The notes beneath the pieces were generated by a model that made no database searches, was not told the DNA's origin, and worked only from the letters and a program-made list of their open reading frames with translations. The translations under genes and the position numbers were made by a program. Of a DNA stretch of 64,000 nucleotides, positions 3,350-64,000 are shown piece by piece; position 1 is the first letter of the stretch, and each line of letters opens with the position of its first letter. This stretch comes from Eledone cirrhosa (Eukaryota). The DNA lies in contig CAXHJY010000554.1 of assembly GCA_964016885.1 (NCBI GenBank), forward strand, positions 23,742 to 87,741, given 5' to 3'.

Positions 3350-3681
3350 TAGACATACGCACACACACATATGCGAGTTCTATTCTTGTCGCCATATTTC
3401 TGTTGAAATAAATTCCGGCGCCATTTTTTGGATTAAGTCGTCATGATTTTACACCCTAGAACTGTATTTACGACTTGCGCAGGATAAAAAAAATTATTAT
3501 TATTATTATCATCAATTAGAAAACGATTGATTTCAGTGTCAATTTTTACTCATTTTATCTATGTAGTATATTCATTTTTTTTTTACTTTAAATTGACACT
3601 TTGTAATTTAAGAATCAATTTTAAAAATTCGGTCACTTTGTTTGATTACAAGCGGCCTAGGAAAAATATAGGGATTCGAGA

Positions 3682-4086
3682 ATGGAGCACAAACCATACA
3701 ATGGGGTATGGATCCCTGTAACAGATGGTCACGATAAAGTAATGTATGAAGGATATATTTTCAATTATGAAAAAATGAGTAAAACTGATGAAGACACTCG
3801 CTTTTACTCGTGTTACAGAAAGAAATCGTTGCGTTGTAAAGCAAGATTGCACATTTGTAACAACACAATAACAAAATTACATAAGAACCACAACCACACT
3901 GAGGATTCTTCGAACATTGATAAAAGTAATAAGTTCAGACTGGAAAGCGAGATGATACGAGCAACGGAATCACATTCGACAAGATTGTTACTTATCGCTA
4001 ACAGCCTCAATTCAACAATATCTGTCCCAGAAAAACTGGCAATCACAAATTCTCCTGGATGTATAAGACAAAGAAATATGAGCAAA
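3682..4086 (+). CDS. FLYWCH-type zinc-finger coding exon (variable unit V1), ends in phase-0 donor
   Basis: ATG at 3682. Translation VMYEGYIF..TRFYSCYRKKSLRCKARLH..HKNHNH fits the FLYWCH/WRKY-GCM1 C-x7-C..H-x-H pattern. There are 135 codons, then AAA|GTAAGT at 4086/4087. Confidence 0.8.
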
Positions 4087-4937
4087 GTAAGTGTATATTC
4101 ACGTGTGTATGTGAAAGCCTGTTTGTTTACATGTATTCAGTGAAGAATGAATCTAGTCAACTGAATAACACAATTTAAACCTGGCGGCCCATAATTCACC
4201 AATCACACTTTTTCTTGGCACCGATTTTAGCTGTCATAAAGTCTCTTTCGAAAGTTTTTTTTTTTTTTTTTTTTTAAATATATTATGAAGGAGTGAAACT
4301 TGATATTATTGCAGATGTATCTCAATATTGTTTCTAGTAGTTACTGTTACTTTTGTTAAGTACCGATTGACGGCTCTCGCCTAAAATACGCATCTCACTC
4401 TTTGCTGTCTGCTAAAATCGGGGACGGTGAAGGATACGAAAGTTACTTTCAAAACCCTGATTCAGGTATGGGTAACCCTTTTTTAGCAGTGAGTTGCATT
4501 AGATATGGTTCATCATAAGGTGAGCCGCACTACTAACAAAAATTAAGGGTAATTATTAATAAGGCGTGCCATTCAGAAAACCAAACGGGCCGCAGTTTGC
4601 CCATGGTTGCAAATAGTGTATAGTTTTATTGTTTATTTTACATAAAAGATATTCCATATCAAGAAGTGGAAAGTTATGGGACTGCCACTACGCTGACTAC
4701 TACGTTCATACGACTGGATAGAGGCTATTTCTAAAAGTGTTTCCAGAAATCTCATTTAGATCCAGAATCCTTCACGATAGACTCGTATACAATTAGTCCA
4801 AGCAACGTCAAAAATACGTTGATACATATCTTAGTGCTACCTATTACAAATAAATTAAACAGTTTGTGAATTTTCTGTTGGGATAGCCACATAAAACCAG
4901 CAAAGTCAGGTAGCAGTGCATTTAAGTTCTTTTACTG

Positions 4938-5492
4938 TCAAGGGTGCGTATTGTCACCTCTCCTGTTCATAATCTTCATGAACAGTATTGACATGCACAG
5001 CTGACTGGAAGTGGTATCAAAACTGGTGGGTGTAGGATCAAACTCGCTAATTTCAATTTGGTGTTTGAGCTTATCCTCACCTATGGTCATGAATCTTGGG
5101 TAATGACTGAACGATTACAAGCAGCCAAATGGGGTTCCTCCAAAGGGTCTTTGGAGTAATATTACTTGACAGGTTGCATAGCTTGGAGATCAAGGAGTCA
5201 CTCCAGGTAGAGCTGCTATTTCTCTGAGTCGAGAGATCACAGTTCTAATACTATGAACATGTGGTTAGAATGTCTCAGGAAAGAATTGCTGGGAAGATTT
5301 TACAGGCAAAGCCAACTGGTAGGACACTCAGTGATAGACCATGAGCAAGATATTTGGATAACATCCATGAGCTTGGTTGGTCTCACTTGGGGATCCATCT
5401 GGATCAATTGGAGATAGTTGCTTCTGATAGGACATGCTGGAAGGCATGTCTGAGGATTCTGCCCCCACAAGACTTTTAGGAATAAGTGAACA
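4938..5492 (+). mobile_element. RTE LINE 3' fragment, same family as 1940-2760
   Basis: QGCVLSPLLFIIFMN motif; shared 3' end ..aggaataagtg. Confidence 0.8.
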
Positions 5493-7029
5493 AAAAAGAA
5501 TTGTTATATCCTAACTAGAACTTAGAAAAGCAGTTAATATCTTAACAAATAAAAGGGATTTTGACACAGTGTAGTAAACTTACTAAAAGGGGTGTTGGGG
5601 TAAACAAAGAATTGGACAAGCCAATGTGGAATATTTAACTATCTTCCTCAAGAAGGATGCATGAAATGAAGGGGTTTTAGATACATTGTGCCCAAATAAA
5701 AGTGGTAATGTTTACAGTTAGAACATTTTTGATCATAGGTTTGCTCAACCAAAGACAGACTTAAGAAAATTGTGGACAGAGGATGTATAATTATAAAATC
5801 TAGAAAGTTATTTCTATTTTTTAAAATTCAGAGCTTTTAATTGGCACCATATCATCTAGGTGCATAAGGTTGACAGAATAAGAATGTATTTGAGTTTGTT
5901 TGTCTCTCTCTGATATTATTAATAATGATTTAAGAATTAGGCACAAGGTCAACAATTTTTGGGGAGAGGAAAGTCAATTAAATCAACCTCAGTGCATTAC
6001 TGGTACTTTATCTTATCAATCCCATAAGGATGAAAGCCAAAGCTAACCTAAGTGGGATTTGAACTCAAAGCATATTGTCAGATGCTCTATCAATACTGTC
6101 AATCCACTGTCCTAATAATAATAATAATAATAATAATAATATTTATATGGTGCCATAAATCTATTACAATTTTAAAAGTTTCTTCACAATTCACGAGTTT
6201 CCATTGCTCCTGACAACCTCTTCTTGCTGTGATTGATGAATGTTCAAGCAGGTCTTTCTCTACTGCATCTCCTGTGAGTTGGTTCTCACAATAGTAACTT
6301 GTGTATAACTTCCTGCTTACTTCTCCAGCAATTTCTTGCAAATTGTAACTGTCTTTGAGCAATTGTAGTTGTTATCTTGGGCAGATTTCCATATAAATTT
6401 TCATTTGTAATAAGCATTAAATAAATAAATCATCTGTAAGGAGTGTATACAATATTTACTTGCCTCCACAAATCAGGAACTACACCCATTATTATTTCCA
6501 TCTACATATATACTATAAGAATACAATTATACTAATGTGTACTATTCACACTAGTATATATGAATGTACATATATATCATCATCATCATTATACATCCTC
6601 TTTTCCATGCTTGCTTTCATTGGGCAGATTCTCTCCAGCATAACCGCCCTCGTACTTTTGTCATTTTTGTGAGGCTCAGTATCTTAAGATCAGCTTTAAC
6701 CACCTCTGCCCAAGTCTTTCTAAGTCTTCCTCAATTGCAACTTCCTTCCACTGGCATCACCTGGCACTTCGTCACCCAGTGTTCCTCATCTATATGTCCA
6801 AACCAGTGCTTCTCTCTTGCACACTATCTGATTCTTCTTATACCCAGCTTTTCTCTCAGTTCATCCATTCCTCATCATTCATGCACACTACTAACATTGC
6901 ACATCCAATGAAGCATGTCACTTCATTTCTCTCCAGTCTCTGTATATCCTATGCATTTATTGCTCATAAAGGAGAGAGGGAAGGACGACAGCTGTATAGA
7001 CTTTTAATGTAATCTTGATACTGATGCCT

Positions 7030-8320
7030 TTCCTGTTCCATACTTTTTCCTTGAGTTTCCTTGAGTTTCCTTGGAGATCCTGTATTCTACTTCTTCGTCA
7101 ATATTTGCTGTTTTAGAGAGAGTGCTACCTAGAAAAATGAATTTTCCAGTTTTTGTCCTTTTATGGTGAAGATGGATTCTTTGTAGAAGGTATCAGGTGA
7201 GAGTTGGTTCATCATTTTGGTTTTCTTGGTGCTTATAGTGAAACTAAAATCGTCACAGGCTTGAGAAAATAAATCCAAGCTTGCTTGCATAACACTTTCT
7301 GAGCTGACATAGAGGGCACAATTACTGGCAAACAAAATGTCTCAAGCTATGTCCTCCTCGGTATATGTCTTGTCCTTTAGTCTGTTCAGATTGAAGATGC
7401 CACCGCCATTAAATTTGTATGATACCTACACCTAGTGTTTCTGTAAGCATCAGAAAGCATAGCAGAGAATACCATGCTGAAAAGCATAGGGGCTATAACA
7501 CAGTCCTGTTTTACTCTGTTGGTAACTGGGAATGGTTCAGAAAACTCACCATCATCTTGTACACTTCCAATCATTCCTTCGTGTAACTGCCTGACTATTG
7601 AGATAAACTTATCTTGACACTCGGACTTGACCAAGCTATTCCAGAGACCTTTCATAGTGACAATGTTTGACTTAGAATAAAAAAAGTCCATGGGTTCAAT
7701 GGGCATCTGCAGAAAAAAACTCCTGTATCAACAGAATCAAAGATGTTTGCAGCACTGCACTGTGGAACACATGCAGGAGACTGAATTAAGTGCACGAGCT
7801 GATGCAGTAATGCACCAGCTTCAGTAATCAGAAGAAGTGAGATAGGTGTAAAAGCCAAACTCACTATCTTCAATTTGGTATTCGAGCCAATTCTTACCTA
7901 TGGTCATGAATCTTGGGTATCAAGCGGCTGAAATGGAGTTCCTCCAAAGGGTCTTTGGAGTAATGTTACTCAATAGAGTTATCCAGGTTAAGCTGATACT
8001 TCTCCGAATTGAGATACTATGGGTATGTGGTTAGAATGTCTCAGGAAAGAATCGATGGACAGCATTCTACACCATGAAACCCAGAAAGCTCCCAGACCTA
8101 ACAATGTGCCCTTGGAATTCTTCTCACATGGTGGCCCTGAATTGAAGACCTTGTTAATGCTCCTGATACTGAAAATCTGGGAAGCTAATACTATCCCTGA
8201 GGATTTAAAAAAGGCCAACATTGTGACAATTTTCAAGAAAGGAGACCAATCATTCTGCAGAAACTCTCATAGCATCGCTGGCAAGATCTCCGCCCGAATC
8301 CTCTTGAATCGACTCCTCCC
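7030..8320. mobile_element. Jumbled RTE LINE fragments (BovB-like on minus, others on plus)
   Basis: SEPFPVTNRVKQDCVIAPMLF and FTISTKKTK on minus; IPEDLKKANIVTIFKKGD on plus. Confidence 0.8.
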
Positions 8321-9042
8321 CATATATATATATATACAGAGAGAGAGAGATGTGAGTATATGTGTGTGTATTCAAAGCAAAAGCGTTTTTGTGGAGATGT
8401 GGAATGTTCTAGTTAACTGACTACTCAGTGATTTGACTTGACCACCTCCCTACTCACCACCACCAGCACAGAGTTGGCTATCCACAGGTGTGAGCCTCGC
8501 GAGCTTGAATGGCTCTTCCAGCACGTCTCCCTCACCATCATCTGGGGGAACATCTCTATTTTGTCCGCCGGGGTTGTAGGGAGGCCAGTGCGTGGACCCC
8601 CATTTGCTTGTAATAGTGAGAGATGGAGAGAGTGGGAGAGACGGAGGCAGTGACAGTGGGAGTTTGGTTCCATTGTGTTCAGACCTGGTGTATATGAATA
8701 TATTTATTTACCACACCACATTAACAATAATTTCTCTGAAGACATAATCCAACGTTCTGACTAGCTTAATGACGTCACTTGTTATATTTCTTGTAGTCAA
8801 GGTCCTGTTTGATGTAAACAGGATTTCATTGGATAGCTTATGATTGACGTCAATTGTTTTTATGAATCCTTGCTTTGAATGATAAACAGCCTTATTCATG
8901 TGCAAATAGAACGTTCAGGGTTTCGAATTCTGGGTTAAACCCATTACACACACACACACACATACATATATGTATGTGTGTGTATATATATATAGGTAAA
9001 TTTACACAACTCCCTAATCGATTTCAGTGGGAAAAGAATTTC

Positions 9043-9431
9043 GTGAGCTATCAACTAATCTAGCCACCAAGATTCTGTCAATCGACTTTTTCCCCGGAAA
9101 ACGGAAACCCTGACCCTAATCAGGGGAAAAAAGTCTGTTGCGAGCATCTAAGAGGTTCATAAAAAATTGAGGAAAGATAATTATTTCCCACCAAACGCGA
9201 GAGGCGTGTCGAGCTGCGAAACTCAGATGGTCCTTTCGCTCCCTTTCACCTCGCTTTTCCTACAAATCTAGTCGTTTCTGACTGGTTCGGAGATCCTATT
9301 CGTTGCCCCCCCCCCCCCCCCATCGTAATGAAAACCCTAAAGTGGGGGTCCGATGGGGGGGGGGCACCCCCTCCGTTCTCCAGGGAAAAAATCGATTGCT
9401 AGAATATTGGATGTTAGATTAGATGATAGCA
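9043..9431. mobile_element. MITE with ~55-bp imperfect terminal inverted repeats
   Basis: gctatcaactaatctagccaccaagattctgtcaatcgactttttcccc pairs with ggaaaaaatcgattgctagaatattggatgttagattagatgatagc. Confidence 0.7.
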
Positions 9432-10223
9432 CAATATATGTGTGTGTGTGTTGAACTTCTTTCTTTTCTCTCTTTCACCCAAAGCGTGAACCTTATAACA
9501 TTAATTGTATTTGTATCTGTGTTTGTCATTTCTTATTACACACACCCTTCTCTATATAAGTATATTCAAGTTATTTCCATTTTATTTTATCACTGTATAT
9601 AAAAATATAATATAATATATTCAAAATACCTTTTATCGTAATATTGTTTTCAAGAATATCAGTAAACGCATTTGGTTATATCTATTATAACTAGCTGATC
9701 CCGTGGCAATTCAAAGATTTAATTGAGTATTAAAGATCAATATGGCATTTTAAGTGTTTTCTTTACAAGTTACACACACACACACAAACAAACAAACTAT
9801 TGTATACAGTGCTTCATTGCATGTAGGCATGGTCGCTAAATCCTTGTAGGAGTCGTAGGGGTGTCGTATATGTTTGTAGGGTATTTTCTTTCAAAACCTG
9901 GTGGAGCCCATCTCTCCATGTCTGTAGATCGCTGGACGAAATACCTTACGATTTTCATTTAGTTACAGCCTTTCGCGTTTGAAATCCCGCCAGATGTACT
10001 TTCTCTTTCGTACTTGCCGAGTTTATAAAATAAACACCAGTTTTACTATTGTAAAATTATTATTATTATGAAATCATTATTTTTTATTGTTACCTTTCTC
10101 TTTACTATTGTCAAACCTGTTTACACGCACCCTACACGCCGACACACACATTCTGTTTTCATGTACCGTCCCAATGTTTTCTTAATGTAAACCCTTTGTG
10201 GTGAATAAGGAAATCATTATTAT

Positions 10224-10492
10224 TGGCAGAATCGATAGAGCGTCGGACACCATGCTCTGCGGCATAGAGTTTCGACTTTTTAACGTTCTGAGTTCAAATC
10301 CTGCGTAGGGAGCTTTGCTTTTCATCCTTATGGGGTCGATAAAATAAATTACCACATCCTGCGTAGGTGAGCTTTGCTTTTCATCCTTATGGGGTCGATA
10401 AAATAAATTACCAGCAACGCAGTGTCGATTTAATCGACTTTCCTGTCCCCATCTCCCAAATGGTTGGCCTTGTGCCTAAATCGAAAATCATT
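10224..10492 (+). mobile_element. tRNA-derived SINE with internal duplication; family copies near 5935(-), 13970, 14560, 16180, 18560, 20210, 24930(-), 26250-26640, 31260(-), 33660
   Basis: B-box gagttcaaatcc followed by conserved tttgcctttcatcctt..ggggtcgataaaataaagtaccag and an (att)n tail. Confidence 0.8.
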
Positions 10493-11644
10493 ATCATCAG
10501 GTAAACATATTTTTGTTATATGGTTTCATGACGTCAGTTCAAGTTATGTGAAAGTCACGAGAAGGCAAAATACGCCATAATGATTTTATAACAAGCAATT
10601 AAAACCAAATTGTTGATTCTGAAAGTTGTACGGCGTAAGTTAAGGGAGATAAATAAATTGTTGCTAAGGAATTATTAGCACCTGGTAACAATCATCAGGT
10701 GGCAGCATGTGTTACCAAAACAAAAACGAAAAAATCTCAGACTGTTAGTTAAAGGGTGAATGTAATTAAGGGCACTGTAATAATGTAATAAATGAAGGTA
10801 ATTTGTTTATCAATAAAAACAAAGTAGATTATTTATATTTTTACATAGTATACTATAAAGTAGTTTCTGTTACATTTAATTTCATCTCATGGCTAAATTT
10901 CCGTAAGATTTTGATACGTGGAAGACTGCCATATTTTGACAAGCGTTGACACGCGATTGTGGGTTTGTTAGAGGAAAAAAATAAGTGGCCAGAGGAAATA
11001 GAGAAAGGACAAGTGGTGTTGTGTGTTACAGATCGGATTATTATTGTGCGCCGTTATGTGAGAGGTTTGGGGTTGATTTCAAGCAAAAGGGATTTCCTGC
11101 GATGTTTTTTCTTTTCTCTTTTTTTATTTGCAATTACTTCCTCACAAACAAGCTATACGTTTCACGCACACATCTCACGTTTTTGTGTATAATACTCCAT
11201 TTACACTTGCGTGTGCGCGCGCCCACACACATACATACAAACACACACACATACACACATATATACGCATTTCTTGGCCCCGCTTTCCTTCATATATAAC
11301 CATATAACACCTGTACATTCTCTCTGTCACCAATACAATTCTCACCAGACGCCTACTCACAAGACTTAACCATTGTATCTTACTCCCGCTCTCATTTACT
11401 CACATACGTCAATGTTAAATCTGGGCGGTATCGTTAGGAAATATAGAAAAGAAATTGTTTTATGAGAATTAAATTATATTTTATATTTTATGAAGAATAA
11501 ATAGCTAATAAGGCGAACACTGAATAATTAATGAGACGGACTGGAGTTTTGCCCTCTTTTCTGTTTGTGTAGGTGGCTTCCACAGTATTTCTGAAGAGAA
11601 GTAGTTTTGGATCTATCGTAGAGATAAACAGATCGATCGAAACA

Positions 11645-12055
11645 ATGCCCCAACATTGCGTAGTTCGATTTTGTGATACCGTTCAGTCTTCGAGTTCAGA
11701 ACCAGCCACTAGTTTACACCGCTTTCCAAAGGATCCCGTTCTAAGGTCCAAATGGATCAATTTCGTGCAGACAGGGCGTAAAAACTGGACACCCAATGGC
11801 TCATCTGCCATATGTTCGCTTCATTTCACCAGCGAAGACTCACTAGGAGTTTTAATGAAGAAATTCGGATGCCGTACACGCATATTCTTGAAACAAGGAG
11901 CGATACCAACAATACAGTGCCCTAAAATGGCATTGTGTGCAGAGAAACCCACAGAGCAAAGACAGGATTTAGTCAGTGATAAAGCGATAAATGAAAATAT
12001 AGCCCTGTCCGGCGGAAATCCATCAGTTCCAAAATTATCTAAAGGAAACTCTCTG
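11645..12055 (+). CDS. THAP zinc-finger coding exon (V2, exon a), phase-0 donor
   Basis: MPQHCVVRFC..SLHRFPKD..WINFV..ICSLHF..LKQGAIPTI gives the C2CH THAP signature with conserved P, W, F and an AVPTI-like box. Donor CTG|GTAAGT at 12055/12056. An upstream acceptor ctcttttctgtttgtgtag| lies at 11572 and is in frame. Confidence 0.88.
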
Positions 12056-12759
12056 GTAAGTTGATTGCGGTTGCTAAATATTAGTGTTTACATTAGATAA
12101 CTACTAAAATACTTTTCAATGTTTAGTTACGTCACTTTATATACAGAGTTCAAATATTGCAGGGTCTAATTTGCCTTTAATCCTCCTCAAGTTGATATAT
12201 GTACCAGTTGTTATAGTAGTAAATTACCGGTATCGATTCAGTCGACTCCTTATTTCATAAATATTTATGAAGTATTAATTTCATAATTCAGATAGACAAT
12301 GAAGACGAGGTGACAATCGAGTAAATTCAGTAAAATTCTAGGATTAATTACCCGAAATTCTCTGCAAAAAGTTAACATAGTCTTTCGTTCTCCAGTATCA
12401 ATAAAATACGTATCAATAATATATTGTAGTTAGTTTAATTGACTTTCTTCTGAAACAACAATAGGCCCTTTATATTGTCAAAAGAAACCAGTATTTCACA
12501 GTTTCTTATTTTATACATTAGGGACCAGCTTAGCTTTTGCATCCTTCTAGGGACAACCAATACGCAAGAGTAATTTGCTGGTTCGTCTCTGTTGAGAATT
12601 TACAGAGTTTCCATTAATTCGTGTGTGAATCTTTATCCTTAGAATTGAAGGATTTTAGACAAAAATAATGATTTTTAAAAATATATTATTGTAATTGTTT
12701 TCTTCTTTTGGCGTACTTGCATCTAATAAAAAAAAATATTTTCATATGTAAACCCCCAG

Positions 12760-13690
12760 TCACTCATGCAGCACCCTACATCAAACCTATCGAATGCAAG
12801 TCGGAGATCAACCTTCTGTTGAGTTAAATAATACCATGTCTGCAAAATCCAGCTGACTGATTTTACACCCGCCAGTCGTGATACCACTTCCAACCTGGCT
12901 GCGCATGTTAATCTTGTTCATGTAAATAATGAACAGGAGATGTGACAATGGTTTCAGGTTAGCACCATTTATCTCAACACAAATACTCGGGCTCTCATAT
13001 AGAGACATCAGGGCAGCAAGAAGCTGACTATCGAACCCATACTCCTGCAGAACCTTCCACAGCAGGTCCTAAGGAACGCAGTCATATGCCTTTTCAAGGT
13101 TGACAAAACAAGAATATACTTCTTGACAATACTCCCATGATTTCTCGAAGACCTGCTGCAGTGTGAATATTTGGTCGGCTGTGCTGCATCCAGGCTGAAC
13201 ACCACACTGTTCATCAACTAGCTTGGACTCAACAATCTCCCTGCATCTCTTTGTATAGACTTTACTGGGGAGTCTTAACAAGTCAAAATTGGAATTACCA
13301 CTCACGATTGCCATTGCTTAGGTACCTTTCCACACTCAGCATACACAAGTCAGCCAGAGAATACCTTCTCTATTTAAGGATTTTAACATCTCGGGTCGGA
13401 TTTCATCTTCCCCAGTGGCCTTACCACATTTGAGTTCTTTAACTGCTCTTGTGATCTCAGCCTCTTTGATTAGTCATCGCTCTCAGATGCACCGCATGTA
13501 CATCAGAAGATGCTGTTGTGATCGGGTTTAGGAGAGCAGCAAGTTGGTTGGATAACATCCATGAGCTTGGCTGGTCTCACTTGTGGATCCATCCGGATCA
13601 GTTAGAGACAGTTGCTTCTGACAGCACCCATTGGAAGGAGTGTTTCAGGACTCTGCTCCACCACCCTCTCAGGAATAAGTGGCTGAAGAA
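12760..13690. mobile_element. RTE LINE fragment (minus) joined to plus-strand 3' end
   Basis: FVNLEKAYDCVP and DEQCGVQPGCSTADQIFTL on minus; homologous to 1260-1890. Confidence 0.8.
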
Positions 13691-16600
13691 GAAATCCCTA
13701 GTCCCTGGCTCTTGTATTGTTTATAATGTTTTGGGCCCTAGTGGCCAATAAAATTATTATTATTAGTAGTAGTAGTCATATTTTCATTGCGTGTTGTCAC
13801 TGCATTACCGAGCACAGCCTTGTGCGTCTTGGGTACGTACAGTGTTGTTTCCATTGCATTGAAAGAACTCTTCATAATGTTTGTGCAAAATGTACCAGTG
13901 CTATTTTCTGTACGTAGTGTATATTTTACTCCTGGGGTTTTGATTATGTATTTGTCTTATTATTATGGTGAATTGGCAATATCGGTAGAGGGTCAGACAC
14001 CATGCTTCACAGCATAGAGTTAGGTCTCTATCCAATCTCAGTCCAAATCCTGCAAAGGTTAGCTTTGTCTTTCATTCTTATGGGGTCGATAAAATAAAGT
14101 ACCAGTAATGCACTGGGTCGATTTAATCGACTTTCCCCTCTCCCCAAAATTGTTAACGTTGTGCCTAAATCAGAAATCATTATCATTATTATTATGGTGG
14201 AAAGAGAAGTGCTGTCCCCCAGTACATTTGCTAAAAGGTCGGTGAATGTGGCGAGAATGGGCCTACTCTGAGCATGCGCCTGTAGGCTGGTTGATTTGAG
14301 GAGGTGCCCTTCCTGGGTGTTCTTGAAGCATTGGGTATTTCAGGATTAGTGGGGTACCTGAATCACCCCTGGGAATTATGGGGAATTATGTTTGTATTTT
14401 TATTGCTTATTATTATTGCTGTATTTATTTTTTTTACTATTTCTACCCCCACCCCACTGTCCGTCGTTTTGTATTGTCCCCTATATGTAGGCTCTTGTGG
14501 CAAATACAGAAAAAAATTATTAAGTATTGGAGAAAAATACATGCAGTGTTTGTTCTGAATTCAATTACTGCCATGGTCAGCATTACTTTTCATACTCTGA
14601 GGTCGATAAAATAGAGTACCAATAAAGCACTGGGGTTGTTTTAATCGATCACCTCCCCTCATCAAATTTCTGGATTTGTGCCTGTGTTAAAAACGATTAT
14701 TATTATTGTTATTTCTTTTGTGATCATTATCAATTACTTGGATCAGGAGAAAGTGAGTGGGTAGTTGTTTTCAGCTACATGCATGGAGGTTGTCATAAAA
14801 GTGCCTTATTTGCAGTAAGAAATGTATGCTTTGTACACACACACACACACACATTTATCTTGGTGTTGCATTTATAAGAAGTGTAATTCAGCAAGCCTTC
14901 CAGCACTAAGAGCCTTAAGCCCCTCCAATAATGTGGAAACTTGTTCAATGATCTTGGTTTTTACAACACAGATTTTCTACTGACTCTAAATGTTAGTATG
15001 ATCATGTTTTTAATTTCTTTTGTAGTCTTGTATTGGTGATAAAAAAAAGTATGAGCTAATAATGATAATACACATGTACAGTATATATAGTTAAGGCCCT
15101 CCCCAATCCCAAAACTGTATCAGAAGCTCTGTTTGGATTAGGTGCAGACAGCTCACTTTTAAGGTATGAAATTAATTTAGGTGCTGTAATTGTAGTATGT
15201 ATGCAGTGCTAGTCAGTCCTATTTTTAAAAAATTTTCTGAACAGATGATTCACCTGGGATATTGCTAGATGTTTCTCACAACCTTTTCTTATCATACCTG
15301 GTGAGTGGTACTGTTATTGTTTGAATATTTCACGTATTTTCAATCTCTATTCCTAGGTTTTGGTATTTGCTTGGTATTTGAATACACAGATCAGTTAATT
15401 TGCAGATTTTATCTTTCCTGTCTGTGATGATGATAATATCTGGCATGATCACTAGAACTGTGCAGTTTGTGCTAAAATCCGAAAGTACCCTTACATTATG
15501 TTATTGGTTCTTGGCTGTTTTTATTTTCTAGTTGCATAGTGAAAATCAGAAAAGAAGCACAGCAAATCTTCATCTGCCTAGTAGCTATGGCAAAACAACT
15601 GTATGGTGGACATGTCTAAAAGGTTTGAAGAGAAAAATCTTCCTCTCCAGCCATGCCCTCACCAACTTCAAGTATTCCTTGAAGAGGAAGATGCTGCCTT
15701 CTAGTGTGTTTTATAAAAGATGAGTGACAGGAAGGGTATCCAGCCATAGAAATCTTGCCAAAGGGTTGGGAGGATCCCTTCAGTTGTGTCAAAGACATGG
15801 CAGCCTACCCTGCGCACTCGGGATAACATGAGACCGTACATAAGCAAGATGACAGATCCCTAGCTTGTCTGGGAGATCATTAGCCCCGCTTCTATACTTT
15901 GGCAGAAATGAACATTTATAGAAATAGTAAACTATGTTATTGAAAGAAACAGCTTTTCCAAGAAACAAAATACAAATATTTGTCTTTGACCTGTGAGACA
16001 TTGTATGTTTATGAAAAAATATTTCAAATATTGGGCCTGCATAATAAAAAATGAAGGCTATTATAATCATGAACACTTGGATAATGCTATTTTAGTTGTA
16101 AGAATTCAAAATACACCAATGAATGAATAGGCCCTCAAATGGACCAGTAACCAGTCATATTATTACTGATTAATGAAGGGCGGAATTAGTAAAGGACCGG
16201 ACAAATGCCTCAGAGTATTTAGCTACGTTTCTTCATGTTCTAAGTTCAAATCTTGCTATGCCTTTCATTCTTCCAAAGTTGATAAAATAAGTAACAATCA
16301 AGTATTGTGGTTGTTGTAACTATTTGGAAGACCCCGTTTAAGGGTGAAGGCAGGAATTGTTTGCTTAAACGTTTAATCTGTGCTAATAAATAAATATTGT
16401 CTAAGCACCTGAAGATTAGGTCATAATTTTGATCCCTATGACAATCTGGAGATGTGGTCAATATTGGGCCTTGTGTTCAGTGTATAAACATAAGTAATTA
16501 ATATATATCAGACCTCATTCCTGATTGAGCAGTTTTCCTTTTTCAGACCTATGAGTATTTTCTACACACACACACACACATATATATATATAGACCTGCC

Positions 16601-18047
16601 TTCCCATGTGCACGGGTTGAAGCATATATCTTGTATGCACTGCTTTCCCCTTCCCACACTGTAAAGTGATCTTGTAGGTGCCACGGTAAAAAAGCACCCA
16701 GCTCACACTGTAAATGTGGTTGGTGTTAGGAAGGGCATCCAGCTGTAGAAACCAAGTCAAAACCAGTCCTGTATGAACAAATCATGGTCATCAGATCGGG
16801 CTTGTCTCACAATGGGGTAACTCATCTAACCCATGCTAGCATGGAAAATACACATTTAACGGTGATGATGATGATTATTTATTGAACATTGTGAGTCAAC
16901 AAATTCTTAAAAATGGGCATAGATGTCCACATATTCAAAGGTTAGAGAATTATGGTTTGTTTCTTGTTCAGCTGGTTTGTATATGTCTTATATTTGTTTG
17001 TGTATGTCTTATATATATAGATCTTCGTTTTGTATTCACACCCTACTTACACACAGAAATATTTAGTTGTACAAACAGGAGAAACACAGTTTAACCCTTT
17101 AAACCAGCCATATCCGGCCAGAATTCTCTCACCTCTTTCTATTCAAACCGGCTGTAACTGGCCATTCATACTGATGTTAAGGTATTGTTCTCAAAATAAA
17201 TAATAACAAAATCTCATAGATCCGATATTATGTGAGGTAAAGCCTTTACCATGAAAATACAACAGTAAATATAGAGTAATGTAAATGCTAAAGTCTTAAT
17301 AAAGTGCTCTTAGGCATGAAATTCATGACCCTTGGGTCACTTGTCTGGTACAGTTTCACAGCAATTATAATTATACATATATAGATAGTTAATGGTGAAA
17401 TGCAAAGCAGTGACAAAATATTCAATGCCATAGGAGAGTACAATAAAATTTATTCAACCCTGAGTTTTTGTGAATTGCCACTCGAAGTTTCTTGGTATAT
17501 GCAAGTATAAAGCTTTAACGCATATGCCCTGTAAGTGCAGGAATATATAGAATTGATGCTGAAAAGTTAACGCTTCTTTGGTAATTACATATTTAAAATT
17601 CAGCAATAACCTTCGCTTCACTATCAGGTAAATATTTTGTAACTAAAAATTGTATATTTGAATCAGGGGGAAAATTGTTTTATTTATTAAGATGAATTAA
17701 TTATCTCCCTTGAACTGCGAAGCTAAAGCAAGAGACTTAATTTACTACTAAACTGTTGGGAATGCTTTCATTTCTATAAAAGTACAACTAAATCATATCA
17801 TTGAAAAGAGAAAAACAATTGGACAAACACTATAAAATAATTTCTCCCTAGTATATGATATATTTAATAGCTTATCTCGTTCAAAGTAATAATGTCAAGT
17901 TTATCTTCCGTTGATGCTAGCTTGGTTTCAACTTCTTTTTCTTTCAGCAACTGACTCACTCAGTTGATTATGCTTGTTTTCATATCTAGTAAGAATTAGA
18001 ATATATTTTATAGTATAATATATCATGTAATTTTTTTTTCCTTGTAG

Positions 18048-18087
18048 CTGAAAACTCAGAATCAACTAAATGAAGAATTTGATATTG
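18048..18087 (+). CDS. 40-nt mini-exon (LKTQNQLNEEFDI-G), phase 0 in / phase 1 out; probable second exon of V2
   Basis: Strong acceptor ttttttttttccttgtag| and consensus donor TTG|GTAAGT. Open in frame 0 for 13 codons + 1 nt. Too short for the ORF track. Confidence 0.7.
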
Positions 18088-18798
18088 GTAAGTCTGATGT
18101 TTCAATATTCCCATCTTTTTATTTTTTAAAATTTGTAATATATATCTTCTGATGAAGGACTAGCATTTGAAACGTTAAGGCTCTTTTCCTTCTATATCAA
18201 GCATAAAACTAATAATATATTTCTTCATTGTACTATGTCATTTGCTTTGTTATTTCTGTTTGCCCTTTGCATACATATATAGGTGTGTGTGTGGGGCTGT
18301 GTATGTAGTTGATGGCTGAGAGTTTTATCTGCGATAATAAGCAGGCGAAACTCCAGTATAGCAAGACTCACTATTTATCCTTAATAAAATGAATATATAT
18401 ATAAACTGCTCTGGCAGAGAATGTGTTGTAGCAATTTACATAGCTATCAAATTTAACATTTTTTAATAACAAATGGTGTTGCTTCTTGTTTTCAGCAGGT
18501 TATTAAATATTCATATATGAATAAATGCTCCAGATACAAGCTTGGCAAAGAATTAAGGCAGTGTTGGATAAATACTTTGCATTTTGAATTCAAATTCCAT
18601 TGAGGTCAACTTTGCCGTTTATCCTTCAGGGGTAGATAAAATAAAGTACCAGTCAACTACTGATTATCGTTTTACACCCCACCCACCCTTTCCCAATAAA
18701 GTTCTTGCTTTGTGCCTGTTGTATCAATGGCAGTCTGCTGTTTTAGTTAAGCTACTTTTTTGTAGAATGTTTTTTTTTATCATAACCACTATTATGTA

Positions 18799-18994
18799 CA
18801 AGGGTCGGCTGAAAAGTTCATAGGCTGACCAAGATACTCATGTAACGACCAAGTGAGGTTTATTTCTCGACATTGTCCCTGGAAAGAAACAATTCAGTTA
18901 TTAATAAGAAGAGTTGAAATTAACGCATGCAAGATTTCACAGCTTTAGCATCAATCCTTCATAGTCAGCCTATGAACTTTTCAGCCAACCCTTG
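18799..18994. mobile_element. Mariner-type MITE, TA target duplication; second copy at 19361-19533
   Basis: TA-caagggtcggctgaaaagttcataggctgac..gtcagcctatgaacttttcagccaacccttg-TA. Confidence 0.88.
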
Positions 18995-20850
18995 TATATT
19001 GTTATTTACAATGATTCATTGCCAAACTAGATGCCTCACATTTCTACATTCAGGCCTTGCTAGGACATTTTTAACCTTTTGACTCTGATGAAATAAGTAC
19101 TAGTTTTATATTCAGGTTGATTAGATTAAAGGACTGTCCTTCTTTTTCAATATTCAAGACTTTGTAACTAATGTTGAACAAATATTTTTCCCTTATATAA
19201 TTATTATTCAGTAAAAGAGGAAAGTCGGGGAATGCTTGTGAGTGGGAAGAGAGTGCAGAAAGTATGACCAAATACACAATAACAAAAATTAAAATGAGTT
19301 GGTAACTAAGATTTTTAATTGGCAAATATGAAAGAAAAATTTAGATATTTCATCCTTATATGAGTGTCGGCAGAAAAGTTCATAGGCTGACCAAATAAGA
19401 CTTATTTTTCAACATAGTCCCTAGAAAGAAACAATGCAGTTATTAAGAAGGAATGAAATTAGTGCATGCAAGATTTCACAGCACAAACATCATTTCTTCA
19501 TAGTCATCCTATGAACTTTTCAGTCAAACCTTGTATAATTTCACAATATTTGTTGAACTGTGTTAACAACCAAAACTGAACCAAATAGAGTATACAGAAT
19601 TATATTTTTATTTGGCATGGGGAAAGGGAATTGTTTAAAAATTAAAGAAATATTAGATGTAATCTACATGATAAATAATATTTATATAGGCCAAAACATT
19701 TTTAATGGAATATTTAAAAAGTTGAAGCAAGATCAAATATAAATTAAAAAGCTGAAGTAAGATAAAATACAAATTAAAAAGCTGAAGTAAGATAAAATAC
19801 AGGGTAACCAGGCAGTCAATACATTTTTATTGCAATGTTCACAGATAACTTTTTGAACATCTGCTTTAAAATATATAGAGGAACAGAGGTCAGATTTTCA
19901 AACATTTACTTTAATTATATTTTTTAAACTACTTTTGATGTATGTATAATTTCGTAATGCATGACCAGAATTTAGTAAATATCATCACTAGGAATATAAA
20001 TATTGAACTGTCCGGTTACGTATGACTCACCCTATATAACAATTAAAAAGGAAAATGATGAGAGTTAATGGTTTGGTGAATTGTATGGGTCACTTTGAGA
20101 TGGATTATTTGATGCCAAGAAATAGTTATGGAAGATCAGAATCAATTATGAGATTGACAACAGCAACAGCTGTTTGTATTTAAAAGTAGTAGTAGTGATG
20201 TTAGTAGCTATTGACGCATAGAGTTACGGCCCTTGCCATTCTGAGTTCAAATCCTGTCGAGGTTAACTTTGCCTTTCATCCTTACGGGGTCGATAAAATA
20301 AAGTACCAGTAATGCACTGGGTAATTGATGGCATTGTGCCAAAAGTAGAAACAATTATTATTGTAAAAATCAGCAGTGAGACCATTTAATTGTTGCCTCT
20401 GTCAATAAATTTACCTCAAATAAGGTTTGTAGCTGCACTCATACAAGATTGATTGTGTTGATTTTTGATAATTGATTGAATCATCGTTGCGATGTATTTG
20501 ATACTTATTTCATTAAAAGTCAGCTTGTAAAAGGTAAACAATTAGTGTATTTAATTATAAACCAATAATTCAAACAATGGAATATATTTTATGTTGTGAG
20601 GACTAAAAGTCCATCGTTTTGGACATATCCCAACATTGGAGATTGAATAAAATCATGTTTTCATGCTAACAAATGGTGTATTTATTTACAATTTTTACAA
20701 ATGCTCAATATGTAAATAACTTTATAAACATTTTAAAAAGTTATAAAAAATGAATCAACTTTATATTTAGACATGTATCGGACAAGTTACCGCATGATTA
20801 TATGGTCATTTGTTTAAAAAATATAGCCGTTTTGATTACACCCTGTATAT

Positions 20851-21172
20851 CAGAGGTTCTCAAACTTTTTGCCCCCCCCCCCCCCCCCCCCCCCAAATAA
20901 CGGCCACGTAATACTATCAGTGCCCCACCCATATTTCCAGAGAGACCTGCCTACACGCAAATTGTAAATAATATATAAATAAAATCGTTAATTTATATAT
21001 AATATAATATACACTATGTATAAACATTATATATTTTTTATTTTACTATATTTATATATATGTATCATTTGATATTTAATATACTATTATATAATCTCTA
21101 CCGCCAGCAACCCCATGGACCTTCTCAACACATCCGGGGGCGGGATGGGATAGCGCCCAATTTGAGAACCTG
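20851..21172. mobile_element. hAT-type MITE with perfect 8-bp TSD CTGTATAT
   Basis: TIRs cagaggttctcaaa / tttgagaacctg; CTGTATAT at 20843-20850 and 21173-21180. Confidence 0.88.
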
Positions 21173-21638
21173 CTGTATATCAAAGTGACCACCAGTAGAT
21201 GTTAAAATGTACCAAGTATATAATTACCGTTTATAGCAAGGTCAAATTATAAACTACCCCCCAATTTTAAAAATTATTTTAAATAATCACCTGCACTGTT
21301 CCACTCTTATTCCACTCCCAGTTGAGTGGTTGCCAATAGGAAGGACATCCAAATGAATATAAAACTGTAAAAGAAAGTAAAATAAAAGTGATATCTTTCG
21401 TTTGGCACCTCCCACTCCCTTAAGATTGACAAAAATGTCACCTACTGGAATAAACTATAAATGTATGCAAGGTTTTAATATACTACTTAAGTTGTTTTCG
21501 GCAGAGATTTTTGTTGGGTCCAATTTAATTCTGATAGAAACTGATTTTGTTAGAATTAAATTAAGCAACGTGACAACGAAACATTAATGAGAAGATACGA
21601 GAGTTATCGAGTTTTTAAACCATTCAAACAGCTTTTAT

Positions 21639-21690
21639 CAACAGACCAATGAGAAACGGGTAGACGGTAGAAGGCGGTGGTCTACATGGG
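21639..21690 (+). promoter_or_regulatory. Putative promoter of V3: GACCAATGAG CCAAT box plus GTAGAC..GTCTAC inverted pair
   Basis: The same motif block is conserved upstream of V5 (31411-31450), while flanking non-coding DNA has diverged. Confidence 0.55.
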
Positions 21691-21826
21691 ATTGTGTCTT
21701 TATTATATATTTTTTGCTAGCATTTTGATAGCCTCTGCTACGTGACAAAATTCCGTGCTAGAACTCCAACTGGCCTTCTTTTTCTATTCTGAGGCTCGCT
21801 AGTTCCTTTCTTTATTGTTCGCCACA

Positions 21827-22067
21827 ATGCCGGCTAACTGTATAGTGAAAGGCTGTCGCTCCATTCAGAAGAAAGGCGGGCCGATTAGCTTCTACCGACT
21901 ACCATGGAAAAATGTCCGTTTAAGAAACGAGTGGATACGACGAGCTGGTTATGATCCGAATAACTACGAGGAAGTGAAGCATATAAGTCGTGACCATCGA
22001 GTATGCAGCAGGCATTTCTGGAACAACCGCAAGGAAAGTCCTTATGATCTCCCGACGTTTTATCTGG
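21827..22067 (+). CDS. THAP zinc-finger coding exon (V3), phase-1 donor
   Basis: gccacaATG context. MPANCIVKGC..SFYRLPW..EWIRRAG..VCSRHF..LPTF. Donor CTGG|GTAAAA at 22067/22068, followed by low-complexity T-rich intron-like sequence. Confidence 0.88.
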
Positions 22068-22280
22068 GTAAAAAAACAAATCTATTAAAATTTAGTTTTC
22101 TTTCTTTTGCTTTTAAATATATATATCAAAAATATATATATAATTTTCACTCTGAACTCCTTGATTCTCTTCCCTTTTCTTTTACCTCTTTTGTGATATA
22201 TAATGGAAATAGTTGAGTGGCTTAATACATACACACATACTACTAAAACGAATATTGTGTATTTGTCGGTGGCCTGAAAT

Positions 22281-23403: not shown

Positions 23404-23647
23404 ATGGGTCGTGCGCGAAAATCGTTCAGTGCTAAACAGAAGTTAAAAGTGATAGCTTTTGCCGAGATTTATGGAAACCGAGCTGCTGGTCGTCAATTCA
23501 GTGTCGATGAGAAATCGGTCAGAGAATGGCGGAAGCAGAAAGATCGGCTGGAGAACATGCCGAAAATAAATGTAGCTGATAGTAACAAGCGACCAAAAGA
23601 ATGGCTGTGGGCTATGCAGAAATGCGGTTTATACATACCGAAATACG
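23404..23647 (+). CDS. Brinker-DBD/pogo-type helix-turn-helix coding exon (V4), probable phase-1 donor
   Basis: MGRARKSFSAKQKLKVIAFAEIYGNRAAGRQFSVDEKSVREWRKQ resembles the BrkDBD-type HTH at the N-terminus of POGK-like pogo transposases. The donor ACG|GTACTT is weak, so the 3' end is uncertain. Confidence 0.75.
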
Positions 23648-31571: not shown

Positions 31572-31812
31572 ATGCCAACCAAGTGCATTGTGAAAGGCTG
31601 TCGTTCCCTTCAGAAGAAAGGTGGGCCGATTAGCTTCTACCGACTACCATGGAAAAATATACATTTAAGAAATGAGTGGATACGACGAGCTGGATATGAC
31701 CCAAATAATTATGAAGAAGTGAAGCATATAAGTCGTGACCATCGGGTGTGCAGCAGGCATTTCTGGAACAACCGCAAGGAAAGTCCTTATGATCTCCCAA
31801 CGATTTACCTGG
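31572..31812 (+). CDS. THAP zinc-finger coding exon (V5), paralogue of V3, phase-1 donor
   Basis: 74/80 residues identical to V3 by manual alignment. Donor CTGG|GTAAAG at the same position (31812/31813). Confidence 0.88.
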
Positions 31813-34331: not shown

Positions 34332-34563
34332 ATGGGTTTTAAACGAATGAAATATACTTCAAAATTTAAACTACAAGTCGTGATGCTGGCTTTGAAAACC
34401 AATAATTCGGAAGCTGGGAGACAATTTAGTGTTAATGAAAAACTTGTTCGGGACTGGAGGAAAAAGGAAGCTGAACTTCGGAATATGCCACCCACAAAAT
34501 GTTCTAATCGCGGTAAGAAAAATACTGACAAAATCAATATACCATGTGTTAATTTTTTTACAG
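34332..34563 (+). CDS. Brinker-DBD/pogo-type HTH coding exon (V6), phase-1 donor
   Basis: MGFKRMKYTSKFKLQVV..NNSEAGRQFSVNEKLVRDWRKK. Two candidate donors, both phase 1: GCG|GTAAGA at 34512 and CAG|GTGAGT at 34563. Confidence 0.8.
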
Positions 34564-36152: not shown

Positions 36153-36223
36153 ATGGTGAACTTCTGTGCCGTGTTTGGCTGTAACAGTAAACACAAGACT
36201 GGGAGCGGCATTTCCTTCCACAG
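36153..36223 (+). CDS. THAP domain first exon (V7a): MVNFCAVFGCNSKHKTGSGISFH-R, phase-2 donor
   Basis: aagATGg start, C-x4-C THAP N-half, 71 coding nt, donor CAG|GTAAGA. Not in the ORF track. Confidence 0.88.
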
Positions 36224-41735: not shown

Positions 41736-42007
41736 ATTCCCTGATGTACGTAAAAAGCCAGGTCTGTGGCACAAATGGGTCCGTGCTCTTGCCCGTCAGA
41801 ACTGGACTCCTACTCATTACACTTATATCTGCAGTCAACATTTTGAAAAATCTTGCTTCCAAACGATCAAACCAGGGGGGCGGGCATTACTTGAAAGATA
41901 TGCTGTTCCTACAATATTTAATAATGTACCCAAAGCACCCGAAAGTCGTGATTTTAACATTGAAAGTTCAATGATATCTACATCTATGTCTTATGTGCGA
42001 AACTCTT
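41736..42007 (+). CDS. THAP domain second exon (V7b), phase-2 acceptor, phase-1 donor
   Basis: Long polypyrimidine tract ending tttag|A TTC CCT completes R-FPD..KWVRAL..WTP..ICSQHFEKSCF..AVPTIF. Donor CTT|GTGAGT at 42007/42008. Confidence 0.9.
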
Positions 42008-48702: not shown

Positions 48703-49057
48703 ATGATGGAGAAACATGTTGGTACACAATCCACTATTTATGATATTGTAACTCAATGTCAATGCCCACAGATTTCTTGTTCTTATAGAAATATTGAAGA
48801 TCATGTAAAGTATACATTATTTACTAACTTTCATAATTTGCCTAGTCAGAAGTTACAAAATTTATATTTGAGTAGTTTAATGAAGAAGAAAGCTTGTAAA
48901 TGGCAGTGCTTACATAAGAGAAAAGACCCCAATTTTTCACGTCGAACTTGTACCTGGGAATATTTTTTGAATATTGATGAAAAGAACATTAGAGTTTGTT
49001 CAAAGGCTTTCCGATTTGTCCATGGCATTAATGATAAACGGGTTAGAAAAGCTCAAG
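48703..49057 (+). CDS. Cys/His-rich transposase N-terminal-like domain exon (V8), phase-1 donor
   Basis: CQC-x4-C..FTNFHNL..QNLYLSSLM..WEYFL..RVCSKAFRFVHGINDKRV resembles the N-terminal zinc/HTH region of invertebrate Sola-like DNA transposases (family call from motif recall, not searched). Donor AAG|GTAAGA. An in-frame stop lies upstream at 48637. Confidence 0.7.
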
Positions 49058-53075: not shown

Positions 53076-53797
53076 GTACAAATAAAAGTCAGTAAAATAA
53101 AATATGATCGGCTAAACCCTTCAAAGTGGTGTCCCAGCTTTGGCCTTTGTTCAATAAATCAAACTAGTAAATGCATCTGTATCTCGTGATTTTGGAGTGG
53201 GTGTCCAGTGCACTATATAAAGTGAGAGTTTTTTTACTATAGTTTTCAATGAGCAAAATCTTTTATTGGTGTATTGGGTTTTTCCCCTCGTGTCAAATTG
53301 TTTAAACTTTTTCGATAGTGTAAATTACTGTACTAAATACACACACATATATAATGAAGCTCTACAAATTATAGTATTTGAGCTATTTCAGGTGTAATGT
53401 AACTGAAAATAATTTTATTTTAGGCTATTCTTATATATATATATATGTATATGATTCTTTAAGACGGGTGGTTATAAATCCTATATTGCACCATACAATT
53501 TTACACTTATACTTCCTCTTACTTCATCAGCCAAAAATATTTTTGAAATACTTTCAAATCCTTCGAGCAACGACAGATTCGTAAAACCTACTCATATAGT
53601 GCTGTAAATCATTCGGTAGTAACTCTAATTGGTCAAAAACAGTTCGATATATAACATTAAACGTGATACGCAGAGCGGCTTCTGATACTTGATAAAAAAG
53701 AAATTACTTCTAACATCAATAAATCGAAAGTTTGCTCCTCAAGACAAAAGTGGTTACACATGCTGTAGACGAAGGCACAAACAAATAATAAATTATA

Positions 53798-54023
53798 ATG
53801 AAAAATCGCGCGCGTATTTTGCAAGATTTCATTGGCAATGGCTCGTCACAACGCAAGCGAATTAGAAATACACTTTATAAAGATGTCGAACAAACCATAT
53901 ATAAATGGGTCCTCCAGCTTTGTCGTCAGGGACTACAGCCAAGTGCTATCAAAAATCAAGCGTAAAGCTATTGAAGTAGCACACAGCCTTGGCTATAATG
54001 GATTTTGCCTTCGTAATAATTGA
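53798..54023 (+). pseudogene. Frameshifted CENP-B/Tigger-type HTH (possible decayed or mis-assembled variable exon V9)
   Basis: One frame reads MKNRARILQDF..RKRIRNTLYKDVEQTIYKWVLQLCRQGLQPSAIK. After an extra A in the A5 run at 53951-53955, the next frame reads IKRKAIEVAHSLGYNGF. Together these give the HTH_Tnp_Tc5/CENP-B pattern. Confidence 0.65.
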
Positions 54024-57716: not shown

Positions 57717-57921
57717 ATATAAAATCTCAAAAGATGGTTAAGAGTTTCATGTATTTTATTATGCGCATTTCAAAAACAAATATCATCGCATAATAAATTA
57801 TATGTAACTCTTAAACATCTTTTGATTTTATATTATTTATACTCCAGTCCTATAAACTGTTGAGTGTTACTTATCCGATATTTGCATTGCTTTATTGTGC
57901 TACAATAAAACTCACCTCATA

Positions 57922-64000
<6,079 letters not shown>

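Follow-up and report, generated by a model that had tools for sequence, protein, structure and literature searches.

The clustered protocadherins and UGT1A carry variable first exons in tandem, each with a promoter of its own, that are spliced to shared 3′ exons; in clusters of this type all variable exons join a single constant acceptor in a single donor phase, and the choice of promoter is specific to cell or tissue. The Drosophila loci mod(mdg4) and lola each give rise from one locus to about 30 isoforms, in which a common BTB domain is combined with alternative DNA-binding modules that include FLYWCH (PMC4667647; PMC11426971, both in partial text), and they are defined by a BTB in common 5′ exons with the variable modules placed 3′ (PMC4667647, partial text). 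The Tramtrack-type (TTK) BTB has been reported as confined to arthropods (PMC4667647 / PMC11426971, in the portions available). KRABINER-type fusions between host genes and transposases are each counted as a fusion event of its own, and in tetrapods the favoured partner is KRAB (bioRxiv 10.1101/2020.05.07.082677, partial text).

The window analysed here, a stretch of 64,000 nucleotides from Eledone cirrhosa (assembly GCA_964016885.1, contig CAXHJY010000554.1, positions 23,742 to 87,741), contains part of a locus that can be set against each of these systems. A 40-nt mini-exon in the window, C0, very likely stands first among the shared exons of an octopod BTB gene. About 30 variable 5′ units of this gene, likely with promoters of their own and mostly encoding transposase-type DNA-binding heads, are predicted to be joined by cis-splicing to whichever shared exon comes next and then to follow the ladder of rungs C0>C1>C2>C3>BTB, yielding what is likely a transcription factor family with a common dimerising body. 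Like mod(mdg4) and lola, this locus joins one common BTB to many alternative DNA-binding modules including FLYWCH, but its heads occupy 5′ exons and its BTB lies 3′, its BTB lacks the FxLRWN motif and is not of the Tramtrack type, and it has at least six unrelated head families and four nested entry exons. Whereas loci of the mod(mdg4)/lola type employ trans-splicing and place some variable exons on the opposite strand, all units detected by tblastn in the octopus locus lie on the plus strand, as do the shared exons, so trans-splicing is not required here; same-strand trans-splicing would be compatible with this layout. The tandem variable 5′ exons and shared 3′ exons recall the protocadherin and UGT1A clusters, but where those clusters vary paralogous ectodomains or enzyme halves, the octopus heads are DNA-binding domains unrelated to one another; entry is through four exons (phases 0, 1, 0 and 0), and some heads are encoded by two exons. 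As in KRABINER-type fusions, transposase-type DNA-binding domains are spliced to a host regulatory domain, but the octopus locus keeps many such heads side by side at one address on a BTB. The heads would descend from transposons, judged by domain family alone.

C0 (18048–18087, plus strand) enters in phase 0 and exits in phase 1. In the window sequence it is bordered by a pyrimidine tract and TAG on its 5′ side and by a GTAAGT donor on its 3′ side; frame 0 is open for 13 codons with one nucleotide left over, and frames 1 and 2 contain stops. On a rough frequency-based splice-site score, the C0 acceptor–donor pair ranked first among 906 frame-0-open AG..GT pairs and second among all 4093 pairs between 12100 and 21600, and second of 24,575 pairs between 100 and 57,800; the top-ranking pair uses the same donor. 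An acceptor 100 nt upstream of C0, at 17948, scores above C0's own; paired with the C0 donor it would delimit a 140-nt exon containing stops, and it is unused in the spliced contig of sequencing run X4. C0 is single-copy, with one match in the genome assembly, and its coding content is conserved across species, the 13-residue peptide being 77% identical to its counterpart in O. bimaculoides and 69% identical to that in O. vulgaris.

Direct evidence for splicing comes from V1, a tier-0 FLYWCH variable exon with a phase-0 donor (3682–4086, plus strand; Pfam FLYWCH E=2e-12; O. bimaculoides isoform X9). Run X4, which derives from a second sample, is far smaller than runs X1–X3 and is of a kind not on record, includes a single 368-nt contig with a depth of 3.62: its letters 1–298 correspond to 3789–4086 of V1, letters 299–338 correspond to 18048–18087, and the remaining letters are the first bases of C1 as found on contig C4 of the assembly, with exact GT–AG ends. 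V1 is thus spliced to C0 and C0 to C1 in Eledone cirrhosa, by one contig of one run, and two of the three junctions named by the first-pass annotation, 4086>18048 and 18087 to the next shared acceptor, occur in it. Together with the sequence and the ranking, this contig bears out the annotation's account of a 40-nt, frame-0-open exon with strong splice sites and a phase-1 exit, and its wider model of variable exons joined to constant ones holds as well. Runs X1–X3 are unspliced and contiguous across the intron–exon borders of C0, and X4 also has intronic pieces; this check of reads at C0 used a 176-base repeat-free stretch, the span 3600–22200 being swamped by repeats. A processed retrocopy was considered as the source of the spliced contig and is unlikely, since C0 has a single match in the assembly and X1–X3 show the unspliced form only.

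V2 is the second tier-0 exon in the window, a THAP variable exon of 483 nt (11573–12055, plus strand) that is in phase 0 at both ends and open from its acceptor, with an ATG at 11645 and a GTAAGT donor at 12056; the earlier reading that it ends in phase 0 at 12055 is therefore correct. It matches Pfam THAP at E=2.9e-17 (63.6 bits against a curated cut-off of 23.9) and is 74% identical to residues 1–151 of XP_052822529.1, its best longer relative, which is isoform X6 of O. bimaculoides LOC106877732 and combines the THAP exon, the C0 peptide and the shared BTB region. The V2>C0 join occurs in two O. bimaculoides models, XP_052822529.1 and XP_014782193.1, RefSeq isoforms being computed models that are in frame by construction. 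V2 sequence is present in four runs, none of them recorded as RNA, which says nothing for or against expression, and the 12055>18048 junction is absent from X4, where the listed V2 contig spans 11524–11951 only and leaves the donor without listed cover. The first-pass proposal that C0 fits phase-0 exons to a shared acceptor accordingly stands for V1 in this species and for V2 in the O. bimaculoides models only. More generally, the V1>C0>C1 joins, the phases and the order and strand of the units come from the data presented here, and V2>C0 and most other joins come from RefSeq models of a relative. Transposon descent of V2, DNA binding and dimerisation are predictions.

A likely leader exon for V2 lies at 10776–10823 on the plus strand, matched by eye to the N-terminus of O. 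bimaculoides models P0004/P0041, and the ATG that begins the leader in the O. bimaculoides model has no counterpart there in Eledone cirrhosa. This loss, the missing V2>18048 join in run X4 and an older O. bimaculoides model (P0005) that reads through the donor and ends would all agree with V2 being a stand-alone or decaying THAP exon in Eledone cirrhosa that makes no use of C0. We consider this highly improbable: the open reading frame is intact, a strong donor sits exactly at the RefSeq join, identity to the joined isoform is 74%, and coverage in X4 is so thin that the absent join carries no weight. Read-through of the V2 donor would meet a stop at 12062–12064. One genome search that took in V2, under a filter stricter than that of the CENP-B search, found no broken copies of it, and the tier-0 CENP-B head of O. 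bimaculoides has many broken relatives in the Eledone genome, at up to ~60% identity.

The stretch from the V2 acceptor to its ATG (11573–11644) comprises 24 open codons, and its O. bimaculoides counterpart is open too. A phase-0 acceptor followed by an open frame would permit tandem V1>V2 heads, of which none has been seen so far, and V2 might on this basis be mainly an internal exon into whose acceptor at 11573 heads such as V1 are spliced, giving FLYWCH–THAP tandems before C0. The phase-0 end of V1 and the tandem THAP+Psq isoforms in RefSeq (isoforms X4 and X7) are in keeping with such a role, but the sole V1 junction observed skips V2, no V1–V2 model occurs among the isoforms listed (15 of 32 in the largest cluster), and the start of V2 is CpG-rich and carries a YY1-like motif, which together make a predominantly internal V2 quite unlikely.

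Beyond C0 the ladder lies on contig C4, where C1 to C3 and the BTB span 234.676–234.785 Mb. C1 (50 nt, contig C4:234,675,742-791) takes phase 1 to phase 0, C2 (96 nt, contig C4:234,758,190-285) takes phase 0 to phase 0, and C3, which starts with a phase-0 acceptor at contig C4:234,781,861, takes phase 0 to phase 2 and is followed by the BTB. In the O. bimaculoides isoform protein the BTB comprises residues 372–475 of 746, C-terminal to the variable part. Inspection of P0001/P0006 found no FxLRWN Tramtrack motif in it, and its best solved relatives are NS1A-binding protein, ZBTB18, SLX4 and BCL6; the Tramtrack-type CG6765 is at the bottom of the list of 28. Many paralogous BTB exons occur elsewhere on contig C4, at 234.80–234.84, 285.9–286.1 and 297.9–298.3 Mb and at 312.4 Mb.

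We scored 29 variable units, all on the plus strand, 3 before C0, 7 before C1, 11 before C2 and 8 before C3, a set that includes V8, added by eye, and excludes a broken half-THAP duplicate at contig C4:234,729,427 and a broken CENP-B copy at 53726 of the window. Their heads, all associated with the BTB, belong to THAP, FLYWCH, CENP-B_N+HTH_Tnp_Tc5, HTH_psq, BrkDBD and DUF3504, and a few have no family. The phase of the top-scoring donor equals that of the next rung in 24 of the 29 units; the five exceptions are V3, V4, V5 and two CENP-B units, and for V3 to V5 the RefSeq join uses a phase-1 donor ranked second or third by score. Top donors in phase 1 were found in four of the seven tier-1 units vs 2 of the 22 others (Fisher p=0.018). 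Donor phase follows position and not family, as THAP and CENP-B units are in phase 1 in tier 1 and in phase 0 elsewhere. Phase 1 is thus a property of tier 1 only, and the common phase 1 that the first-pass annotation had extended to the whole locus does not hold: C1 returns to phase 0, the C2 and C3 acceptors are in phase 0, and 22 of the 29 units sit in phase-0 tiers. Phase 1 had been taken as general because the window shows mostly tier 1.

Since most variable units have a donor in phase with the next rung, the phase adaptation by C0 is local only, and C0 and C1 together amount to 90 nt and are net phase-neutral. On the proposed rule that a donor's phase must fit the next rung, V1 and V2 would need an exon of length 3n+1 to pass through C1, and C0 is also used by further phase-0 units (Psq, CENP-B and leader-only isoforms). 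One possible, if doubtful, reading of these relations is that C0 is a dedicated adapter, gained from an intron after tier 0 had joined as the final tier, 5′ of an entry exon in phase 1, and rescuing the frame of phase-0 heads. This reading shares the mechanics of the account favoured here and differs in the origin of C0 only. C0 is the outermost rung, is 3n+1 long and has no recognisable domain, all coding units upstream of it are in phase 0, and V1 or V2 joined directly to C1 would be out of frame, as a purpose-made adapter would have it. However, phase-0 heads can reach the BTB body unaided, because the C2 and C3 acceptors are themselves in phase 0; C1 is likewise small and turns the phase back, and the 13 residues of C0 are conserved like those of an ordinary coding exon. 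C2 moreover looks like the 3′ portion of a THAP unit, being 53–67% identical to part of the tier-3 THAP (contig C4:234,776,731-814), and the tier-2 heads X29, X30 and X32 end just short of the last histidine of the THAP match, a residue that C2 provides. Because C2 both resembles part of a tier-3 THAP and completes these half-THAP heads, the comparison suggests that the rungs may be former internal exons of older units, from which it would follow that C0 was inherited and was not made as an adapter. On the account of a ladder of shared exons, C0 by itself is an ordinary short coding exon, but one that marks an unusual locus.

The half-THAP heads lie at contig C4:234,729,719-234,745,469, and for the unit at 234,729,719 the XP_014782221 row in the portion of the PMC10027918 supplement available gives the same C2 join. 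Three large single-exon DUF3504 heads, at contig C4:234,721,107, 234,739,002 and 234,777,319, reach 330–390 aa, far above the other heads, and two of the three also have weak QRICH1 matches.

Within the window, the units downstream of C0 are all on the plus strand and begin with V3 (21827–22067; O. bimaculoides isoform X20), a tier-1, phase-1 THAP variable first exon, and V4 (23404–23647; isoform X19), a tier-1, phase-1 exon with a Brinker-type helix–turn–helix. V5 (31572–31812; isoform X21), a further tier-1, phase-1 THAP exon, is a close duplicate of V3, and the duplication predates the Eledone–Octopus split because both copies occur in O. bimaculoides. V6 (34332–34563) is a predicted Brinker-type unit with candidate donors after 34512 and 34563, both in phase 1. 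V7 is split into exon 1 (36153–36223), which carries the N-terminal THAP part, ends in phase 2 and corresponds to isoform X11 and Argonauta P0010, and exon 2 (41736–42007), which carries the remaining THAP from phase 2 to phase 1 as supported by Pfam and isoform X11. V8 (48703–49057), with a phase-1 donor, is a doubtful candidate that has no Pfam family and is not CpG-rich; its reading frame is cysteine-rich and its donor good, and no matching isoform is present among those listed. At 53726–54020 lies a broken CENP-B/Tc5-type copy with stops and frame breaks, whose intact counterpart is at contig C4:234,669,434. From 57900 to 64000 the window is near-pure AT repeat up to the end of the contig, which is the likely reason for the assembly break.

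Base composition at the unit starts points to a promoter for each unit. Over windows from −800 to +100 of 28 unit starts, which take in 100 coding bases and do not represent mapped start sites, the median CpG observed/expected ratio was 1.05 vs 0.36 in 2000 windows drawn at random from the locus (p=8e-16), and a YY1-like motif, under a pattern that we take to represent the site, was present at 12 of the 28 starts vs 9.9%. The four shared exons have ratios of 0.31–0.51, and V8 is the exception among the units at 0.15. By-eye comparison places the starts of the RefSeq cDNAs of V3 and V5 in DNA just upstream of their own ATGs. Taken as sequence signals, these features make one promoter per unit likely.

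The window's contig probably fills a 200-N gap at contig C4:234,660,713, a placement that is inferred and not assembled. The contig ends where the window ends, in an AT repeat, and the right flank of the gap is likewise AT repeat. The placement follows from a tier-0 Psq exon upstream of the gap, at contig C4:234,567,943, from C1 downstream of it, and from agreement in order with O. bimaculoides, in which Psq, V2, V3, V5, tier 2 and tier 3 succeed one another on one scaffold (PMC10027918, in the part of the supplement available). Orthologues of two O. bimaculoides tier-0 heads, a CENP-B exon and a THAP exon before Psq, were not found in the assembly and may lie in the C4 gap or have been lost. 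Among the open reading frames listed for the 23.7 kb upstream of the window on its contig, no head was recognised by eye, and most of the stretch is made up of AT repeats and LINE fragments. From the Psq exon to V1 (contig C4:234.50–234.66 Mb and the window's contig), the text of the open reading frames shows dense LINE-, LTR-type and hAT-like pieces.

The relatives of these proteins are already known in so far as RefSeq annotates them as uncharacterised isoforms: isoform names of LOC106877732 reach X36, and the largest cluster has 32 members, 15 of which are listed. Of 1662 candidates, a search with the shared region retained 33 proteins; they include more LOC106877732 isoforms, orthologues from Argonauta, O. 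sinensis and O. vulgaris, and related cuttlefish BTB proteins. The O. vulgaris and Argonauta models are probably not independent, because they are named after O. bimaculoides RefSeq isoforms. In 34 stored proteins with the C3 motif, a count that mixes orthologues of several species and two annotation versions, the entry point was C0 in nine, C1 in seven, C2 in ten and C3 in eight. Paralogous octopus loci also carry alternative heads on one BTB, namely LOC106877745 (CENP-B, FLYWCH) and LOC115209549 (THAP, CENP-B). A table in PMC10027918, as far as that source was available, contains 11 entries labelled LOC106877732 and treats them as separate factors from 'BTB/POZ transposon sources'; the same source, in its available parts, describes Octopus THAP and CENPB factors as BTB-bearing, and its main text never uses the word 'isoform'. 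What is new here is that these separate factors are isoforms of one laddered locus. The literature searched, which left out most subscription journals, yielded no description of the locus architecture, and one may exist.

Under the mechanism that we favour, a transcript would start at one unit, so that promoter choice would select the head; the unit's donor would join the next shared acceptor downstream, and the ladder would then be followed to the BTB. Most units would have no usable acceptor and would be skipped by transcripts from upstream, a rule that is not universal, as V2, V7 exon 2 and the tier-0 Psq exon do have acceptors of their own. Units would be kept only where the donor phase fits the next rung, misfits falling out of frame and being lost, and the resulting proteins are predicted to bind DNA through their heads and to pair through the BTB.

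On an evolutionary scale we tentatively entertain a bolder possibility, that coleoid cephalopods independently evolved a mirror image of mod(mdg4) and lola, in which a BTB gene served as a landing pad for about 30 transposase DNA-binding domains, each taken up as a first exon with its promoter; intron phase would have decided which were kept, and the array would have grown outward rung by rung. In that scenario C2 would supply the last zinc ligand of the half-THAP heads, and promoter choice combined with BTB pairing might produce a combinatorial dimer code, perhaps in neurons, or a library of anti-transposon repressors. On the favoured account itself, the design of one BTB with many DNA-binding domains arose twice and in opposite orientations, in insects and in cephalopods. 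Transposase capture can be counted at a single locus, where each intron sets a phase rule open to testing, and part of what has been published as expanded sets of octopus THAP, CENP-B and Psq genes consists of isoforms of one gene. The locus is in this sense a candidate diversity generator for cephalopod gene regulation.
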